Below, piece by piece: positions 44,033 to 53,046 of a stretch of DNA of 64,000 bases. The position numbers and the translations under genes were made by a program. Source of the stretch: Lentimicrobiaceae bacterium. GTDB lineage: Bacteria; Bacteroidota; Bacteroidia; Bacteroidales; Lentimicrobiaceae. Positions within the stretch are counted from its first letter, which is position 1. Every line of letters starts with the position of its first letter. Location of the stretch: assembly GCA_020636745.1 (NCBI GenBank), contig JACJXH010000006.1, positions 132,555-196,554 on the forward strand, written 5' to 3'. The notes under the pieces were generated by a model, which saw nothing but the letters and a program-made list of their open reading frames with translations, was not told where the DNA came from and did not search any database.

Positions 44033-47000
44033 ATGCAAAAATTCCTGGTTTATAAATCTTCTGCCGGATCTGGCAAAACATATACACTGATGCTTGTTTA
44101 TCTGAGCATTGTTTTAAAAGAGCCTGCCAGGTTCAGAAATATTCTGGCCATTACCTTTACAAATAAAGCCGCCAATGAGATAAAACAGCGTATTGTTTCC
44201 AGTCTTAAAATTATCATTGAGATGCAATCAGAACCAACGGAAGGAAAATTGGTTCATCTCATTCAATCTCTTCAACAGCGCACTGAACTTCCATTTGAAG
44301 AATTGCGTGCAAATGCCGGAAAGGTGCTCTCGCTTATTTTGCATAACTATGGCGATTTTGCGGTTTCAACCATTGATAGTTTTATGCATCGTATTATCAG
44401 GGCATTCTCATTTGACCTGAAGCTTGCAATGAATTTTGAAGTAGAGATGAATACCGATTTGTTGCTTGCCAACACCGTTGATGCACTTTTAGCTGATGTA
44501 GGAAAAAATGAGCAATTGACTCAAGTGCTTGTTAAGTTTGTACGTGAGCGTGCCGAAGAAGATGAAAGCTGGCAAATTGATCGTGATTTGCAATCTTTTG
44601 CCGATAATCTTTTTAACGAAGATGCTATTGATTTTCTGAAACCAGCCGGCGAATTTTCGGCCGATAATCTTGATTCGCTCAGGAAAAAGTTAACTCAGTT
44701 TCTATTCGATTACAAGGAAGAAATTGTTAATCTGGCCACTGATGCAATGAAATTAATAGAAGCACATGGCATTGATCCTGATTTATTTTCGAGAGGGAAT
44801 ACGGGTATCTATAATTATTTTAAAAAACTGAGTCAGGGGTTTATTAAAACAGAAGTAAATTCCTATGTGGCCAAAACCATAAATGATGGAGTCTGGCTTA
44901 GTGCAAAAGGGCAAAAGAGTGCTCAGGGACAGGCTGTTCTTTCTATTGCAGATGATTTACTGGGATATTTTAAAAGTATTGAAGCGGTCAGGCAAAAAGA
45001 CTCAGGCAGATATGAACTTTATCTTAATCTGCGCAGAAACCTTTATCCAATGGCTGTTTTGGGCGAGCTCAGCAACAGGCTTCAAAATGTAAAAAAAGAT
45101 TTAAATGTGGTTTCCATTGCAGAATTTAACCGCATTATTTCTTCTATCGTTATGAATGAGCCTGTGCCATTTATTTATGAACGTACAGGCGAAAAATATC
45201 GCCATTACCTGATTGATGAGTTTCAGGATACTTCAGTTTTACAGTGGAACAACCTTCTGCCGCTTATCGATAATTCATTGTCGCATGGGGCTTTAAATAT
45301 GATAGTCGGAGATGGAAAACAGGCTATTTATAGGTTTCGCAACGGAGAAGTTGAACAGTTTGTAAAATTGCCTGAAGTGGATAACCCATCAGGAAGCGAA
45401 GTGCTTAGTCAGAGGTCTAAATCGCTTGAACGCGAATATTTACCTAGTGTTTTGGATTCCAACTTCAGATCAAAATGCGAGATTGTTGACTTTAACAACA
45501 GTTTTTTCAATTTTTCATCGAAAAGCTTTCTTCCTGAATATAGCCAGGTGTATGAGGACTCAGCGCAGAAGTCAGACCCTCTCAATAATGGCGGGCAGGT
45601 TCAGATTGAATTTTTTGATGGTGATAAAAAGGAGTTTTCGGCATATAATTGCCGCAGGGCATATGAATTAATTGATGAGTTGAAGGATTCGGGTTATTCC
45701 CCGGGAGATATAACCATATTGTGTCGTTCAAATAAGGACTCATCGCAAATGGCCGCTTATCTTAATTCACAGGGAGTAAAAGTGGTTTCTTCTGATAGTC
45801 TGTTGCTTCGTCATTCACCTGAAGTGAATTTTATGATGAACTGGCTGACCCTGATGACTGACCCCGAAAATGTGATTGTTCGCTCTGCAATTGCTATGTA
45901 CCTGTTTAATCATCCTGCTGATTCAGCAAATACGCTGCATACAAATCTTCAAAAGGCTTTGGATATTTCAGGATTTTACAAATTGCTTGAAGAGAATGGA
46001 TACCGGGTTTCTTTCATAAACTTCGGGCAAATGTCACTTTATGATACTTGTGAAGAACTCATCCGGATTTTCGGGCTACACCTTAAATCACCGGTGTATA
46101 TGCAATTTTTCCTTGATGAAATTCTCTCTTTTACATCAGGAAAAATGGCTGGAGCTGTTGAATTTCTTGAGCATTGGGAACAGAAAAAGAATAAACTGTC
46201 GGTTGTACTGCCATTATCTGATGATGCTGTTCAGATTATGACCATTCATAAGTCAAAAGGACTTGAATTTCCTGTGGTAATTTATGCTTTTGCTGATGAT
46301 GCTTATAAGTTGACAAAAAAATCAGCATGGGTTAATCTGAATGACCCATTGCTGACCGAAATGCCGGTAGCAATGCTCAAACTGGATAAGTCGTTGGAAA
46401 AGACTGATTTTGCAAGTCTTTATACAAAAGAAGACCAGAAGTCGCGACTTGATTTGATGAATATGGTATATGTGGCTTTTACACGGCCGGCTGAAAGATT
46501 ATATGTACTTACTGGAAAAATCCCCGAAAAGGAAACTGAAAAGGAAGTCAGAAGTTTGACAGCATTAATTGTTGATTTTTTAAAAGCTGCCGGGCTGTTT
46601 GAAGTTTCAAAACTGAGGTACACTTTTGGTGATTCAGGCGTTGTAGTCCAGGAATCAAACAATGTTTCAGGAAGTAATGGACTGGAGTGTGAATTTTTGT
46701 CAAGTAATTGGCAACAACGATTGGTTTTTGCAGGAAGAGCTCCTCAAATTTGGCAATCGTCTACTCCTGAAAGTGCGCAATTGTCCGGCAATTTGCTTCA
46801 CAAGGCCCTTGCCGGAATTATTTACCCGTCAGATCTCGATAAAACGATAAATAAATTACTGAACGAAGGCGTAATCGTTCCTGAAGAAGTTCAGGTTTTG
46901 CGACATCGGCTTGGGCTGGTGTTGAGTCATCCTGATGTCGCCCGTTTTTTTGGACAGGAAGGAAAAATCGCAGTTGAGACTGAAATTCTTGCTCCGGGAG

Positions 47001-47206
47001 GTAAAAGTTACAGGCCCGACAGAGTTGTTTTTCTGCAAAATGAAACGCATGTGGTTGATTACAAGGCAGGAGCGCCGGTTCAATCGCATAAAGGCCAGGT
47101 GCTCAAATATGCTTCTCTTCTTGAGGGTATGGGTTATCCGCGTGTGAGAGCCTGGTTAGTATATCTGAATCAGCCTGTCGAGGTTATTGAAATGGTAAAT
47201 GGCTGA
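44033..47206 (+). CDS. UvrD/AddA-like ATP-dependent helicase-nuclease
   Basis: SSAGSGKT, AITFTNKAANEIKQR, IDEFQDTS, VGDGKQAIYRFRNG, IMTIHKSKGLEFP and YVAFTRP; C-terminal PD-(D/E)xK nuclease RPDRVV...VVDYK. Confidence 0.92.
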   Translation: MQKFLVYKSSAGSGKTYTLMLVYLSIVLKEPARFRNILAITFTNKAANEIKQRIVSSLKIIIEMQSEPTEGKLVHLIQSLQQRTELPFEELRANAGKVLSLILHNYGDFAVSTIDSFMHRIIRAFSFDLKLAMNFEVEMNTDLLLANTVDALLADVGKNEQLTQVLVKFVRERAEEDESWQIDRDLQSFADNLFNEDAIDFLKPAGEFSADNLDSLRKKLTQFLFDYKEEIVNLATDAMKLIEAHGIDPDLFSRGNTGIYNYFKKLSQGFIKTEVNSYVAKTINDGVWLSAKGQKSAQGQAVLSIADDLLGYFKSIEAVRQKDSGRYELYLNLRRNLYPMAVLGELSNRLQNVKKDLNVVSIAEFNRIISSIVMNEPVPFIYERTGEKYRHYLIDEFQDTSVLQWNNLLPLIDNSLSHGALNMIVGDGKQAIYRFRNGEVEQFVKLPEVDNPSGSEVLSQRSKSLEREYLPSVLDSNFRSKCEIVDFNNSFFNFSSKSFLPEYSQVYEDSAQKSDPLNNGGQVQIEFFDGDKKEFSAYNCRRAYELIDELKDSGYSPGDITILCRSNKDSSQMAAYLNSQGVKVVSSDSLLLRHSPEVNFMMNWLTLMTDPENVIVRSAIAMYLFNHPADSANTLHTNLQKALDISGFYKLLEENGYRVSFINFGQMSLYDTCEELIRIFGLHLKSPVYMQFFLDEILSFTSGKMAGAVEFLEHWEQKKNKLSVVLPLSDDAVQIMTIHKSKGLEFPVVIYAFADDAYKLTKKSAWVNLNDPLLTEMPVAMLKLDKSLEKTDFASLYTKEDQKSRLDLMNMVYVAFTRPAERLYVLTGKIPEKETEKEVRSLTALIVDFLKAAGLFEVSKLRYTFGDSGVVVQESNNVSGSNGLECEFLSSNWQQRLVFAGRAPQIWQSSTPESAQLSGNLLHKALAGIIYPSDLDKTINKLLNEGVIVPEEVQVLRHRLGLVLSHPDVARFFGQEGKIAVETEILAPGGKSYRPDRVVFLQNETHVVDYKAGAPVQSHKGQVLKYASLLEGMGYPRVRAWLVYLNQPVEVIEMVNG

Positions 47207-47286
47207 ACAAAATTGAGCTATTTTTAGTATACAATGAGTTTTGATTGTTTTCATTCGCCGGTTTTAATAATTGATACCTTTGCGCT

Positions 47287-48336
47287 ATGGTGATGAAAAT
47301 AGATGCTTCACGGTTATATGAGCTGAAGGTTGCGCTTCCATTGATTGATGTGCGCTCTCCGCTTGAGTTCGAACAGGGGCATATTCCCGGCGCTGTAAAC
47401 ATTCCTTTGTTCAGCAATGAAGAGCGGGCTAAAGTTGGTACGCTTTATCATAATGCGGGTCGCGAGGCCGCCTTGTTGCTGGGCCTTGATTTTGTTGGAC
47501 CGCAAATGTCGGGGTTTGTCAAAAAGCTCAACGGACTTTGTCATCATAAACCCAAAGAGGTTATTGTTTATTGCTGGAGGGGCGGGATGCGAAGTGGTTC
47601 AATGGCCTGGCTTTTCAGTACTGCTGGCTTTAAAGTACATCTTCTTGAAGGAGGTTACAAGGCTTACAGGGCTTTCATTCGTGAATTGTCCGGTGCTGGT
47701 AAGCCCATTGTCGTATTGGGCGGAATGACAGGTTCAGGCAAAACTGAGATTTTGCATAAGCTGCAGGAGAAAGGCGAACAGATAATTGATCTGGAACGAT
47801 TAGCCTGCAATAAAGGTTCTGTTTTTGGGTATCTTGGACAGCCGGTTCAACCAACTAACGAACAGTTTGAAAACGACTTGTTTGAAGCATGGAATAAACT
47901 TGACTCAACAAAACCGGTATGGATTGAAGATGAAAGCCGTTCAATAGGTGCTGTGGGTATTCCCGGGCCGTTTTTTGAACGTATGAAATTATCGCCCATG
48001 TTAATGATTGATGTGCCTCCGCAAGTAAGGGTTCAGCGGCTTGTTCATGAGTATGCGGTGTTTGACAAGGCATTGCTTGCCAATGCTCTTATAAAAATTG
48101 CACAGCCTCTCGGAGGGCTTGTTTATAATGAGGCATTGGTTGCCATCGAAGAATGCCGGTTTGCCGAAGCCATAAACCTTGTTTTGGGGTATTATGATAA
48201 AACCTACCGGAAAGCTCTTCAAAAGTTTGTCAATCGCGAAATTTTTGAAGTTAAAACTGATACCGGCGATGCAAATATAAATGCCGGATTATTATTAAAG
48301 ACTAAACCAAACATGATCAAAGTGCCCTTTTTGTAA
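47287..48336 (+). CDS. mnmH: tRNA 2-selenouridine synthase (rhodanese + P-loop)
   Basis: IDVRSP.EF..GHIPGAVNIPLF, YCWRGGMRS, LEGGYKAYR, GMTGSGKT, IDLE.LA..KGS.FG and EDESR.IG. Confidence 0.95.
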   Translation: MVMKIDASRLYELKVALPLIDVRSPLEFEQGHIPGAVNIPLFSNEERAKVGTLYHNAGREAALLLGLDFVGPQMSGFVKKLNGLCHHKPKEVIVYCWRGGMRSGSMAWLFSTAGFKVHLLEGGYKAYRAFIRELSGAGKPIVVLGGMTGSGKTEILHKLQEKGEQIIDLERLACNKGSVFGYLGQPVQPTNEQFENDLFEAWNKLDSTKPVWIEDESRSIGAVGIPGPFFERMKLSPMLMIDVPPQVRVQRLVHEYAVFDKALLANALIKIAQPLGGLVYNEALVAIEECRFAEAINLVLGYYDKTYRKALQKFVNREIFEVKTDTGDANINAGLLLKTKPNMIKVPFL

Positions 48337-48393
48337 TTCACATTCTAAAGGGCGAAATCATTTTTATTATTTATAGCTTTCAGATCTTTTTCT

Positions 48394-50601
48394 ATGAACC
48401 AGATTTATCTTGACTATAATGCGACGACTCCCATTGCACCTGAAGTAGCCGCTGAAATGCGCCCATTTATTGATGAGTTTTTTGGAAATCCATCCAGCAG
48501 TCATCTTTTTGGAATAAAAACCCGCGGCGCGGTTGAAAAGGCCCGGTCAAGGGTTGCAGCTCTTTTAAATTGCCGGCCGCAGGAAATAGTGTTTACCAGT
48601 GGGGGTACTGAATCGAATAATATGGCAATTAAAGGTGCTGCTTTTGCAATGCGTGCTCATGGGAATCACATTGTCATTTCTGCTGTTGAGCATCCGGCCG
48701 TCACCGAAGTTACCCGGTTTCTCGAAAATCATGGATTTGAGATTTCTATTGTACCGGTTGACCCTATGGGTATGGTTGACCCGGATGATGTGAAAAAAAT
48801 GCTGCGTCCTGAAACAATTCTAATTTCGGTTATGCATGCCAATAATGAAGTTGGTACAATTCAACCCATTGCTGAAATTGCGGATATTGCCCGTAGGCAT
48901 GGAGCTTTGATGCATACCGATGCGGCGCAATCATTGGGTAAAATTCCGGTTGATGTTAAAGCACTGGATGTTGATTTGCTTTCGGTTGCCGGACACAAAC
49001 TATATGCTCCTAAAGGGATTGGGGTTTTATTTATCCGTCATGGGGTAAAAATTGAAAAGCTGATGCATGGGGCTGACCATGAACAGAATTTGAGGGCAGG
49101 AACCGAGAATGTTCTCGAAATTGTTGGACTGGGCAAGGCTTGCGAAATTGCAGGCCGCGACTTGGAAAACAATCTGATTCATCTGGCAAAAATGAAAAAC
49201 AGACTGTACAGGGGGTTGACAGAAAAACTGGGAGAGCTTCATGTAAATGGTCATCCTGACCGTTGTTTGCCCAATACACTGAGCATTGGGTTTAAGAATC
49301 TGAATGCTGTAATGCTCCTACAGGCAATGGAGGGCGTGGCTGCTTCGGCTGGAGCTGCATGTCATACAGGAACAACCGGCGATTCATCTGTTTTAGGGGC
49401 GATGAAAGTTTTACCTGAATTTTCGCAGGGAACTATAAGATTCTCAACAGGCCGTAATACAACCGAAGCTGAAATTGATGAGGCTGTAGAACAGATTGTG
49501 CGTGCTGTTCATTCCTTTGCACCTGAATCAGGTGCTCAGTCTTCTTTTTCAGAAAATAATGATACAGTCAGGTTAACTCAATTTACACACGGATTGGGTT
49601 GTGCCTGTAAAATGAGGCCTGCCGATCTGGAAAAAGTACTTGCCAATATGCCTGCTGTTCATGATCCCAGGGTTATGGTTGGCGCTGATAAGCGCGATGA
49701 TGCTGCGGTTTACCGTTTAACAGATGACCTGGCACTGGTTCAGACAGTTGACTTCTTTACACCTGTTGTTGACGACCCATATACTTTTGGGGCCATTGCT
49801 GCCGCCAATTCGCTCAGCGATATTTATGCAATGGGGGCTAAGCCTGTTTTTGCGCTCAATATAGCCGCTTTCCCTGTAAACCGTCTGCCATTGAATGTGT
49901 TGGAGGCTATTCTGAAAGGTGCATCAGATAAAGCATCCGAAGCTGGTATCTCAATCCTTGGAGGACATTCTATTGAAGATACAGAGCCGAAATTTGGCAT
50001 GGTAGTCAGTGGATTGGTTCATCCTGATAAAGTGCTGTCAAATGATGGTGCCCGGCCTGGTGATTTATTGATTCTGACGAAACCTATCGGAACTGGCATT
50101 ATTGCTACTGCAGCCAAGCAGGGCATTGCTGAGCCGTCGAGCATTTCATTGGCTATCAAAAATATGGCTTCACTGAATAAGACAGCAGCCGAGCTTATGC
50201 TCAAACGAAAGGTAAATGCTTGTACTGATGTAACCGGATTTGGACTTTTAGGGCATTTGCATGAGCTTACAGCCGGATCGGGCGTCAATGCCGAAGTAAG
50301 GTTTAATGACATCCCGTTTATTGAAGGTGTTCAGCAATTGGCTGCAGCGGGTGCAATACCGGGAGGGACAATAGCAAACACAGATTTTGCAGCTGATTTT
50401 ACCGACTTTGGTGTGCTTTCTCAAACTGATAAATACCTGCTTTGCGATGCCCAGACTTCGGGGGGCTTGCTTATTGCGCTGCCTGCTGACGAGGCCGGAA
50501 TTCTTCTTGCCGACCTGATTGAGCATGAAATTATGGCTGCTATTATCGGAAAAGTTACCGGTTGGGGAGAAGGATCAATTCAGGTGGTTTTTAATTCATA
50601 A
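48394..50601 (+). CDS. selD: Fusion of NifS/IscS-type PLP cysteine desulfurase (selenocysteine-lyase-like) and Cys-form selenophosphate synthetase
   Basis: N-half: YLDYNATTP, FTSGGTESNN, HTDAAQS, AGHKLYAPKG (K202) and SAGAACH (C323). C-half: THGLGCACK (C403/C405/K406), DDAAV, QTVDFFTP, ANSLSDIYAMG, GGHS, TDVTGFGLLGH and DAQTSGGLL. Confidence 0.93.
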   Translation: MNQIYLDYNATTPIAPEVAAEMRPFIDEFFGNPSSSHLFGIKTRGAVEKARSRVAALLNCRPQEIVFTSGGTESNNMAIKGAAFAMRAHGNHIVISAVEHPAVTEVTRFLENHGFEISIVPVDPMGMVDPDDVKKMLRPETILISVMHANNEVGTIQPIAEIADIARRHGALMHTDAAQSLGKIPVDVKALDVDLLSVAGHKLYAPKGIGVLFIRHGVKIEKLMHGADHEQNLRAGTENVLEIVGLGKACEIAGRDLENNLIHLAKMKNRLYRGLTEKLGELHVNGHPDRCLPNTLSIGFKNLNAVMLLQAMEGVAASAGAACHTGTTGDSSVLGAMKVLPEFSQGTIRFSTGRNTTEAEIDEAVEQIVRAVHSFAPESGAQSSFSENNDTVRLTQFTHGLGCACKMRPADLEKVLANMPAVHDPRVMVGADKRDDAAVYRLTDDLALVQTVDFFTPVVDDPYTFGAIAAANSLSDIYAMGAKPVFALNIAAFPVNRLPLNVLEAILKGASDKASEAGISILGGHSIEDTEPKFGMVVSGLVHPDKVLSNDGARPGDLLILTKPIGTGIIATAAKQGIAEPSSISLAIKNMASLNKTAAELMLKRKVNACTDVTGFGLLGHLHELTAGSGVNAEVRFNDIPFIEGVQQLAAAGAIPGGTIANTDFAADFTDFGVLSQTDKYLLCDAQTSGGLLIALPADEAGILLADLIEHEIMAAIIGKVTGWGEGSIQVVFNS

Positions 50602-50677
50602 AGGCAGATCCTGATTTTCGGCAACTTATTATCTTTAGTTTTAAGTTAACCTGGAATATTGTGTTTATTTGATAAAA

Positions 50678-50772
50678 TGTAAAACCGGCTGTAAGCTCAG
50701 GTTCCCCGAATATCTCTTATAGTTGAAATAGGGCACAAGTCAGGAACAATTCAAAGCTAACAGCCGGTTCGT
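50678..50772 (+). ncRNA. Probable 6S-like RNA (compact Bacteroidota / 6S-Flavo-type)
   Basis: Intergenic rod: AACCGGCTGTAAGCT (50683-97) pairs with AGCTAACAGCCGGTT (50755-69) with one mismatch; inner GTTCC/GGAAC stem, internal bubble, apical CTTAT/ATAGG stem. Family assignment is from recall only. Confidence 0.55.
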
Positions 50773-51069
50773 AAGGGAAGATTTACAAGTATTTTTAATA
50801 AACTTTGAAACAGAAGTTGTAGTTACTTATTTATGTCTGGTATGTAAAAAAGTAATGCGCCGGGTTTGAAAATAATTAAAAATAATTTACATTACGTTGA
50901 TTTATAGTAAAATATGTGTTTAATAAATTTACAATTAATAGGGTGGTGGTAAAATTACGGTGTGTTATCGGATAGTTCACATTTGAGTGTTATAATGCAG
51001 GGAAAATGGTTGTTGCTCTGATGGCGTCAGAGGGAGGGGGCATTCACGGAGAATGTTTGATTGTTTGTT

Positions 51070-51960
51070 TTAAACATCCCGCTTTGGTTCAGGTTTGTTT
51101 TTCCATCGCTTATGCGACCAAAGATAATAAGCCGGTTGCCGGCGAATGTCATTTTCAAGCAAAGCAGCATAAGTGCTGAGGATTTCCCGCTCGCTTTTTT
51201 GTTCCTGTGGTTCGGATATTGGAATAAACTGAGCTGTATAATAACCCCGCTTAACTTTTGTGATGGATAAATAGACCACAACTGAGCCTGTTGCCCGTGC
51301 CAATTTAGCGCCTCCGTTGAACAAAAGGCTGGGTTGATGAAGAAAGTGAAAGCAATAATCAGGGTCTTTATGATTGGGCGACTGGTCGCCAATAAAAATA
51401 TAAAGTGCCGGATAATCTTTTTTACTGAGAATAAACCGGCCGGCTTTGCCCATTGAAAGCAATTTCATGCCAAATTTGCCCCTGATTTTATTCATAAGTA
51501 TTTCGGTTATTTTATTGGAGAGGGGCTTGTATAAAGTGTAAATGCTAAATCCGAAATAAAGTGGCAGCATTATCCCCCATTCCCAATTACCATGATGACC
51601 CGCAAGAGCTATTACATTGAGTCCCCTTGAATGATAGTCATTGATCATTTCTGGATTTTCAACTTTGAATCGTTTTTTTGCTTCTTCTGATGTTAATCCC
51701 TGGCTTTTGATTACTTCAGTAAATACATCAAAAAAATGCACGTAAAATTGGTTGACCAGCTTTTTAATTTCTTTGTAGTTTCTTTCGGGAAATGAACGGG
51801 CTAGGTTTTGAACAATAACGTCGGAGCGGTAATGAAATATTCGGGAAGCGCAAAATCGTAAGAAGGAAGCCTTAAAGTACAGAAGTTTTAATGGCAATTG
51901 TCCGGACAGCCTCGTTAATGTGAAAAGCAGAAAAGCAATTGATTTGTGTAAAAAATTCAT
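51070..51960 (-). CDS. Lipid A / lysophospholipid acyltransferase (LpxL/HtrB family)
   Basis: YRSDVIVQNL..SFPE, GH.GNWEW, YKPLSN, FIGDQSP and YYLWSHKRWK; start taken at MNFLHKS (51960). Confidence 0.9.
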   Translation of the reverse strand: MNFLHKSIAFLLFTLTRLSGQLPLKLLYFKASFLRFCASRIFHYRSDVIVQNLARSFPERNYKEIKKLVNQFYVHFFDVFTEVIKSQGLTSEEAKKRFKVENPEMINDYHSRGLNVIALAGHHGNWEWGIMLPLYFGFSIYTLYKPLSNKITEILMNKIRGKFGMKLLSMGKAGRFILSKKDYPALYIFIGDQSPNHKDPDYCFHFLHQPSLLFNGGAKLARATGSVVVYLSITKVKRGYYTAQFIPISEPQEQKSEREILSTYAALLENDIRRQPAYYLWSHKRWKNKPEPKRDV

Positions 51961-52200
51961 TATCCGATATTTATAATCTTTGTTCTGGTAGCCTTCTCTG
52001 GTCTTCAAAATTACAAAATTACTTAATGATAGTTTAAAAATGAGTGTGGACTTCTGGTTTTATTAACTTTCGCTTGCATATTTGGAAACTTCAGAAATCA
52101 AAACAGCCTTTAGCTTGTAATTCTGCTTGATTTCTCACCTTTAAAAAATTGACGGTAATTTCTAAGAAGAGTGAGGATGTTTTCTGAAATACTGTCCTTT

Positions 52201-53046
52201 TTATTTTTTAAATCGTTCTGTTTGTGATTTTAAGTGCCTGGCGCCGGGAACAAAAGTATATCCTATCATGGTTGTAAGGTCATTTCCTATCCTAAACCCG
52301 ATGTCAAGACTTCCATGGCCGATGCTCCAGCTTATACCTGTTAGCAAAAATGGATTAATCTTACTGGAAGTATTTCCTTCGGTGGTAGAAGTATTGTTGC
52401 TGATTTCAACTCCAAGGTTAGGGTTAATCCTAAGTTTTTTAACCGGAAAATAAATTTTACTACTCATGCCTATGCTTGAAATGCTTGTTGAGGCGGAGTT
52501 TTCAAGATACCCGTTTTTACTTATGGAGTAAGTCGCGGCCAAATCCCATCGGTTAAGAAGTAAAAAGAAACCGATGCGCGTGTTGAATGCTATGTTTATA
52601 TATTCCGAGGTGTTTAGCTGAAACAACCCTCCCAGATAAAAAAACCAGGGATGTTGATTTGTTCTTAAGGAATTTACAGATGGTATATTCTGCGGAATAA
52701 TACTGTTTAAATCCCATTTTTCGAGCAAAAGAGCATTGTTGTTTTCAAGGTTTCTTCCCCAGAGTTCATTTTTTTCTTCATATTGCACAACTATCAGAGA
52801 ATTTTGCCATGAATTGGTCAGAATGTTCATGATTGCATACTTGTCGCTTATTTCCAGTGTATTGTATTCTGGTGTTGCTACTATGGTCAGGGTGTTGTAT
52901 TTATCAAGGTCGGCCGATTTAAAGTAGGTTGAATATTTTTGCAAAACGGATTGATAAAATGACTGAAATGCGCCAGATGAATTCTGGGCCCATACAGGCT
53001 GCATACTTAGCTCAATAAAAATCAATACCAGTATTACTTTTTTCAT
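52201..53046 (-). CDS. Hypothetical secreted protein with C-terminal outer-membrane beta-barrel-like domain (operon gene 5)
   Basis: Signal peptide; alternating hydrophobic beta-strands; ATGA overlap with the upstream gene. Confidence 0.7.
   Translation of the reverse strand: MKKVILVLIFIELSMQPVWAQNSSGAFQSFYQSVLQKYSTYFKSADLDKYNTLTIVATPEYNTLEISDKYAIMNILTNSWQNSLIVVQYEEKNELWGRNLENNNALLLEKWDLNSIIPQNIPSVNSLRTNQHPWFFYLGGLFQLNTSEYINIAFNTRIGFFLLLNRWDLAATYSISKNGYLENSASTSISSIGMSSKIYFPVKKLRINPNLGVEISNNTSTTEGNTSSKINPFLLTGISWSIGHGSLDIGFRIGNDLTTMIGYTFVPGARHLKSQTERFKK

Follow-up and report, generated by a model that had tools for sequence, protein, structure and literature searches.

A NifS-SelD fusion beside mnmH in a Lentimicrobiaceae lineage without the selenocysteine machinery

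Fusions of a NifS-like protein with SelD (selenide, water dikinase) have been described in a handful of organisms. Zhang et al. 2008 (PMC2398784) found one only in Geobacter sp. FRC-32, with a SelD of the selenocysteine (Sec) type, and none in the Global Ocean Sampling (GOS) data. Mariotti et al. 2015 (PMC4561486) reported two prokaryotic fusions as well as those of Acanthamoeba and Naegleria, explained them by one bacterial fusion and its horizontal spread, and predicted that such fusions keep selenophosphate synthesis in selenoprotein-containing genomes. A fused SPS-NifS was also noted in Spironucleus (PMC6006210, PMC6397501). Here, we analyze a NifS-SelD fusion encoded directly 3′ of mnmH, the gene for tRNA 2-selenouridine synthase, in a 64,000-nucleotide stretch of a Lentimicrobiaceae bacterium, hereafter the window (C10:132555-196554 in an assembly of 3.70 Mb that is 95% complete).

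In vitro, NifS-like proteins supply SelD with selenium (Lacourciere et al. 2000, as cited in PMC4561486), and the way SelD receives selenium is still called unclear (PMC11431864). The E. coli SelD with IscS, CsdB/SufS or CSD has the two activities of the fusion, and the flow proposed for it is the same, from Sec to enzyme-bound selenium, to the Cys17/Lys20 loop and to selenophosphate, as cited in PMC4561486. The E. coli SelD and its NifS-like donors are separate proteins without a dedicated partner, whereas here they are joined by a linker of about 15 residues before the SelD catalytic loop.

SclA of the Enterococcus faecalis selD locus (10.1101/2020.02.07.939272; NF040779) is also a class-V pyridoxal phosphate (PLP) lyase linked to selD in a selenoprotein-free host, but it belongs to another subfamily, is unfused and serves the selenium-dependent molybdenum hydroxylase rather than 2-selenouridine (Se2U). 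The Ndh-SelD fusions (Zhang et al. 2008) likewise place an N-terminal accessory domain before a Cys-type SelD and often lie near selU. Their accessory domain is a flavoprotein (NADH-dehydrogenase-like) and their loop is CxxC, in contrast to the PLP desulfurase and GLGCACK here.

The published NifS-SelD fusions share with ours the NifS-like N-terminus, the SelD C-terminus and the inferred delivery of selenium to SelD, and all but the FRC-32 one are said to be Cys-type, as here. The published bacterial ones are one or two cases, all in selenoprotein genomes, whereas ours is the sole SelD of a lineage without Sec machinery. Unlike them, it lies in a conserved operon with mnmH and its family is abundant in uncultured anaerobes. 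The fusion type is known from earlier papers (Zhang 2008; Mariotti 2015) and the locus is a tidy but fairly ordinary example. What is new is descriptive: this abundance, the conserved order of helicase, mnmH and fusion, the selenouridine-only lineage, the constrained linker length and a cultured host.

The locus has two codirectional open reading frames (ORFs) on the plus strand, 47287-48336 (349 aa) and 48394-50601 (735 aa), separated by 57 nt. We consider it fairly probable that they form a two-gene operon making Se2U at the tRNA wobble position 34 (Se2U34) by passing selenium from Sec via Cys323 and Cys403 to selenophosphate. The NifS half would take selenium from free L-selenocysteine and hold it as a perselenide on the mobile Cys323 loop. 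The selenium would then pass to the flexible Cys403/Lys406 loop, about 15 residues past the end of the NifS fold, and the SelD half would make selenophosphate with ATP. MnmH would use it to turn the MnmA-made 2-thiouridine (s2U34) into Se2U34. In this scheme, we infer the substrate Sec, the direct transfer from Cys323 to Cys403 and Se2U as the only product, and the hand-over of selenium from free Sec through the two cysteines appears plausible.

The first ORF, mnmH (selU/ybbB), exceeds the cut-offs of two MnmH equivalog models, NF008750 (371.3 bits versus 241) and TIGR03167 (349 versus 219.75), with the model coverage of residues 16-324 out of 349. Its rhodanese Pfam domain at 16-128 contains Cys96 (47572-47574) within YCWRGGMRS, and a Walker A P-loop GMTGSGKT occupies residues 146-153 (47722-47745). 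The initial annotation had named this gene mnmH, and the two models, the rhodanese cysteine and the P-loop all agree. The product, MnmH, is predicted to convert s2U34 into Se2U34 with selenophosphate.

The N-terminal half of the second ORF (residues 1-373; 48394-49512) is a group I, NifS/IscS-type PLP cysteine desulfurase according to Pfam, model and alignment results. It matches Aminotran_5 at residues 4-362 with 263 bits and aligns end to end with the IscS-type desulfurases (1p3w, 5e-97). The group I features are all present, namely the class-V aminotransferase fold, the PLP lysine in GHK, His100 (48691-48693) and the mobile-loop cysteine. The desulfurase residues had been placed at K202 and C323, and they are found exactly there, the former as H201-K202 in AGHK (K202 at 48997-48999) and the latter in SAGAACH (49360-49362).

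This half falls below the equivalog cut-offs of both NifS (TIGR03402, 458.6 bits versus 530.75) and IscS (TIGR02006, 383.6 versus 643.2), and by its sequence appears to be a separate subfamily, neither canonical NifS nor IscS. Eukaryotic Sec lyases match it less closely than IscS does: the rat and human enzymes (SCL) reach only 2e-65 and 2e-62, respectively, with 2e-65 for 3a9x, versus 1e-97 for IscS. The fused clade is separated from the outgroup NifS proteins at five positions only, V106, K222, A305, A321 and T347. No known specificity determinant is among them. K222 (49057-49059) lies beside the flexible 223-235 loop and is lysine in 100% of the fused NifS halves and in 47% of the nearest unfused relatives. 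In the outgroup NifS proteins, the residue is usually proline, and lysine in 2%.

The C-terminal half (residues 389-735 and the stop codon; 49558-50601) is a SelD by the same kinds of evidence. AIRS and AIRS_C domains cover 435-542 and 554-731 of the 735-aa protein, and the SelD equivalog cut-offs are passed with 402.4 bits versus 125 (TIGR00476) and 373 versus 299 (NF002098). The match to the E. coli SelD (3u0o) has an E-value of 3e-82 and spans its residues 4-335. Because this alignment begins at 3u0o residue 4, C403 (49600-49602) corresponds to Cys17 and K406 (49609-49611) to Lys20. The motif GLGC403AC405K406, aligned to GAGC17GCK20, is invariant in 75 homologues.

The SelD half had been called a complete Cys-type enzyme, and indeed C403, C405 (49606-49608) and K406 are all encoded by ordinary codons without TGA. 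Every NifS-SelD fusion examined is Cys-type as well. Sec-type fusions among the relatives were ruled out, since the stops counted inside the matches all proved to be terminal. In the catalytic loop (residues 400-406; 49591-49611), the fused SelD halves all have G(L/M)GC(A/G)CK, which is less glycine-rich than the GAGCGCK or similar motif of 14 unfused Bacteroidota SelDs.

The two halves lie in a single ORF, with the NifS-like N-terminus, the SelD C-terminus and no stop between them, which is the architecture of the published fusions. The same uninterrupted ORF with the halves in one frame recurs in the 37 relatives' loci examined, from at least 8 phyla. More than 100 database clusters have a length of about 735 aa, and the best 120 clusters all carry the fused ORF, several of them named 'cysteine desulfurase NifS/selenium donor protein' by JGI. 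The cultured Lentimicrobium saccharophilum (G001) also carries the fused protein, WP_062044593.1 of 732 aa.

An artefact, either a frameshift or missed stop that merges two genes or a SelD that is made from an internal start, might be suspected from the annotations, as RefSeq lists one L. saccharophilum locus under two models, a fusion of 732 aa and a SelD-only protein of 342 aa, and the annotation of one metagenome-assembled genome (MAG) gives a 'partial' desulfurase of 384 aa. This explanation is hardly credible against the recurrence of the ORF in the 37 loci and at least 8 phyla, the more than 100 clusters of similar length and the conserved linker length. The fusion is, judged from these comparisons, not an assembly artefact. 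At the L. saccharophilum locus (L038, G001:C2:686000-694000), where the SelD-only entry is WP_394330767.1, no stop divides the halves and the annotation of the fusion is inconsistent.

The halves had been described as joined by a linker of about 20 aa. The linker is present, but the alignment with the E. coli SelD places it at about residues 374-388, some 15 aa in length (SFAPESGAQSSFSEN; 49513-49557). Its sequence is poorly conserved and its length is constrained: the mean column identity among the 75 homologues is 0.37, versus 0.75 for the NifS half and 0.71 for the SelD half, and in 74 of them, 19-22 aa separate the last NifS helix from the invariant L394.

The residues invariant in the 75 fused homologues include H100, D176, Q179, H201, K202, C323 and R349 of the NifS half and C403, C405, K406, D435, D436, D453, N472 and D476 of the SelD half. 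Therefore, both halves are under purifying selection. An AlphaFold2 model of the fusion has a mean predicted local distance difference test score (pLDDT) of 87.4, and four segments score below 50: the loop 223-235, the Cys323 loop 322-329, the linker 378-389 and the Cys403 loop 403-405. Both cysteine loops are mobile elements in the separate NifS/IscS and SelD structures, and the low model confidence of the Cys323 loop would be expected for a mobile loop.

As to the rest of the genome, the fusion is the sole SelD, a second weak match being ThiL. The absence of selA, selB and tRNA-Sec had been noted for the window, where the only tRNA is tRNA-Leu, and it extends genome-wide. SelA was not found in the genome, nor was SelB above the cut-off, its best match being an EF-Tu-like GTPase domain only, and no tRNA-Sec was found genome-wide at the Rfam gathering score or by ARAGORN. 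The selenium-dependent molybdenum hydroxylase trait is marked by YqeC, which was not found in the genome either.

MnmA, which makes the s2U precursor, and CysK are present in the genome. The other class-V PLP enzymes are SufS (TIGR01979, 585 bits) and SerC, so the NifS half is the only group I desulfurase of the genome. The search for selA, selB, selC and other NifS copies, which the initial annotation had suggested, thus leaves SufS as the sole other desulfurase, and the Fe-S housekeeping has this separate desulfurase of its own. Given the lack of SelA, SelB, tRNA-Sec and YqeC and the presence of MnmA, CysK and SufS, the selenophosphate most likely serves 2-selenouridine only.

The pathway had also been proposed to be self-contained. 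This is overstated, as the pathway also requires s2U made by MnmA and a supply of free Sec. In enterobacteria, CysK is able to make free Sec unspecifically from selenide. As the Sec-tRNA machinery is absent, the free Sec here would come from such unspecific synthesis by CysK, which is present, or from uptake.

Two kinds of tRNA calls were encountered in the genome search. ARAGORN reported an 88-nt 'tRNA-Pyl' with anticodon CTA at G000 C1:184355-184442 (L131 1149-1236, minus strand), between two genes for fold-type-II PLP enzymes. A recoded tRNA-Sec was considered and rejected, as the site has no Rfam tRNA match at E ≤ 0.01 and SelA and SelB are absent; the call is probably a false positive. 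Seven 70-nt 'tRNA-???' calls at G000 C12:40955-43591 on the minus strand, spaced by about 380-525 bp, resemble a repeated element more than they do tRNA genes.

The nearest named relatives of the fusion protein are from Lentimicrobiaceae and Lentimicrobium MAGs, in agreement with the Bacteroidales host originally supposed. The fused ORF is present in most of 36 same-genus genomes and in at least 5 other families of the order. In all 10 of the closest relatives with flanking sequence, mnmH lies directly 5′ of the fusion, as it does in more distant genus members including L. saccharophilum. The two-gene selenouridine module recognized in the initial annotation is thus found at every same-genus locus with enough flank.

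The order of helicase, mnmH and fusion is conserved across the genus. From this genus-wide synteny, the module is old and chromosomal, not mobile, and the best explanation is a chromosomal two-gene operon inherited vertically in the genus. Within the genus, the fusion and mnmH are co-present or co-absent, with two exceptions at contig ends (G028 and G033). The genus members without the fusion (G003, G024 and G031) lack mnmH and any other NifS-type gene and have SufS only. SelA was not found in any of the 37 genus genomes.

This gene content bears on whether the NifS half is instead a sulfur donor, for instance for the MnmA-dependent s2U or other thio-cofactors, with the fusion to SelD being for coregulation only. 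A dedicated desulfurase for MnmA exists in Bacillus subtilis, which is YrvO. The NifS half is the sole group I desulfurase in a genome with MnmA, and its cysteine-desulfurase catalytic residues are all intact. However, where SelD and MnmH are missing from relatives in the genus and Bacteroidales, so is any NifS-type gene, leaving SufS only. To our knowledge, MnmA is near-universal in bacteria, so the sulfur supply evidently needs no NifS. Moreover, the desulfurase is fused to SelD, not to MnmA, by a length-constrained linker beside the SelD catalytic loop, and the two halves have spread across phyla together. We judge the sulfur donor very unlikely.

Other Bacteroidales families have unfused mnmH-selD pairs (G042, G045, G049, G051 and G060) with the same gene order as here. 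These SelDs share 42-48% identity with the fused SelD half, read GAGCGCK or GAGUGCK, and fall on the other side of the tree branch described below. Two genomes of the order show further arrangements. G058 (C24:16225-22884) has an unfused selA, then a NifS-like gene whose product is 33% identical to the fusion's NifS half, and then selD, possibly an unfused desulfurase-SelD counterpart in a Sec-using relative. G060 (C32:83474-85666, C36:12204-14354 and C39:6045-7409) has the fusion together with SelA and an unfused Sec-type SelD, which has an in-frame TGA in GAGUGCK and directly follows mnmH. The two SelDs of G060 may serve different selenium traits.

Beyond the order, the fusion had been thought to be noted only sporadically, which is outdated, as it is abundant in metagenome-derived genomes. 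It is far more common than the two bacterial cases in the literature. Mapping of its distribution, proposed earlier as a check, found it in at least 8 phyla, in addition to its conservation beside mnmH in the genus. It occurs in 15 named species representatives of other lineages, and the lineages with it comprise Zixibacteria, Calditrichaceae, Caldisericaceae, Anaerolineae, Phycisphaeraceae, 'Deltaproteobacteria', KSB1 and several Bacteroidales. In an even sample of the phylum, with 401 mostly high-quality genomes, just 2 have the full-length fusion.

Clustering at 50% reduces the family to roughly ten full-length representatives, and those retaining the region keep the SAGAACH-type and G[LM]GC[AG]CK motifs. 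In a tree of the SelD half, all 37 fused copies are split from the 14 unfused Bacteroidota SelDs by one branch (SH-aLRT 92). The identity to the window's SelD half is 55-60% for the fused copies from other phyla versus 42-48% for the unfused SelDs. In the NifS tree, 36 of the 37 fused copies belong to one cluster of 39 (SH-aLRT 91), which includes three apparently unfused sequences, one of them cut by a contig end. The simplest reading of these quick trees would be that the fusion arose once and then spread laterally as a unit, splitting occasionally.

The neighborhoods outside the Bacteroidales are different. In Zixibacteria, Calditrichia, Anaerolineae, Phycisphaerae, KSB1 and others, no mnmH was found within 4 kb of the fusion. 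The neighbors there include YjeF_N, enoyl-CoA hydratase, SbcC, KAS, peptidase M1, ABC-2, GDSL lipase, asparagine synthase and ferredoxins, which are unrelated housekeeping genes, and no partner gene of the fusion is shared across these phyla. Near the nearest unfused NifS relatives, from Geobacter, Syntrophobacterales, Dehalococcoidia, Gemmatimonadota and Desulfobacteraceae, no NifU, SelD or other selenium genes were found.

Such surroundings would suit a selenophosphate that feeds also or mainly an undescribed use of selenium, with MnmH as one client among others, and orphan SelDs with nearby desulfurase-like genes have been described (PMC5029168). In the genus, on the other hand, mnmH is the immediate upstream gene throughout and is co-present or co-absent with the fusion, and YqeC is absent. 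For the locus here, we regard such an additional client as quite unlikely.

Several points weigh against the proposed Se2U34 synthesis from Sec via Cys323 and Cys403. With the unrelated neighbors outside the Bacteroidales, the fusion family is not tied to MnmH everywhere. The single-chain AlphaFold2 model has a predicted template modeling score (pTM) of 0.68, too low to establish how the domains are placed relative to each other, and both parent enzymes, NifS and SelD, are dimers. The NifS half is closer to IscS than to the eukaryotic Sec lyase, and the SclA model NF040779 gives it 126.7 bits, below the cut-off of 525. In EH100P101AV, Pro101, invariant in the 75 homologues, takes the place of the specificity-determining Asp146 of the human Sec lyase (10.1101/2020.02.07.939272). 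A signature of Sec specificity is thus not recognizable in the sequence of the NifS half. Furthermore, any selenide available to CysK would also be available to SelD directly, so the need for the detour through Sec is not obvious, and no biochemical study of any bacterial NifS-SelD fusion was found in the literature searched.

Some of these points are shared by the possibility that the NifS half is a selenium carrier, in which a persulfide formed on Cys323 from the abundant cysteine captures selenide or selenite-thiol adducts as S-Se and presents them to SelD. The organism has no Sec-tRNA synthesis or dedicated source of Sec, and the NifS half resembles an ordinary cysteine desulfurase with no Sec-specific features. 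No sequence feature sets such a carrier apart from the lyase, however, and CysK is present and could supply free Sec. The in vitro precedent with NifS-like proteins and SelD uses Sec, as cited in PMC4561486. We consider the carrier unlikely.

The Sec lyase as the selenium source of the SelD half can tentatively be extended to the entire fused clade. The fusion may be a hard-wired relay that passes the Cys323 perselenide to Cys403 within the protein or dimer. By this relay, selenouridine-only organisms that do not make Sec on a tRNA would draw selenium from free Sec, either scavenged or made by CysK, discriminate it from sulfur and release no selenide. We hold this to be a possibility somewhat short of an even chance.

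The remaining features of the locus concern its expression and flanks. The 57-nt spacer between mnmH and the fusion (48337-48393) has no terminator-like site, so their cotranscription is likely. A candidate Bacteroidetes-type -7 promoter box, TACCTTTG (47275-47282, plus strand), lies 5 nt 5′ of the mnmH start. It is a weak candidate by position only, since the motif is not enriched in the window, where 73 were found versus about 80 expected. An Rfam scan of 46500-52500 gave zero matches, and hence a known small RNA or riboswitch is absent in or beside the operon.

Directly 5′ of mnmH is a gene for a 1057-aa UvrD/RecB/AddA-like helicase (44033-47206), whose functional link is not obvious. A long imperfect hairpin is found on the 3′ side at 50683-50770, AACCGGCUGU.AGCU ... 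AGCU.ACAGCCGGUU, in the interval from the fusion stop (50601) to a convergent acyltransferase gene that ends at 51070. On the minus strand, it has -37.5 kcal/mol and z = -4.15, with 0 of 200 shuffled sequences folding as well, and a U-rich run comes after it, and on the plus strand its z is just -2.0. No Rfam family, including 6S RNA, matches it at E ≤ 0.1. It may be a terminator of the minus-strand gene or a small RNA.

In summary, the locus leaves the known picture of selenium metabolism unchanged and its biology is otherwise ordinary. The fusion behaves as one laterally spread unit, and in Lentimicrobiaceae it appears to serve a selenouridine-only lifestyle, in contrast to the earlier prediction that selenoproteins occur alongside such fusions. 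As a natural covalent pair, NifS-SelD provides 'Rosetta-stone' evidence for the NifS-to-SelD route and a convenient single-protein test system. How SelD gets selenium without free toxic selenide in cells is unresolved (PMC11431864), for which the fusion is a tractable model. If the relay is true, the fusion in the cultured L. saccharophilum would be the first direct handle on the selenium supply of SelD in vivo.

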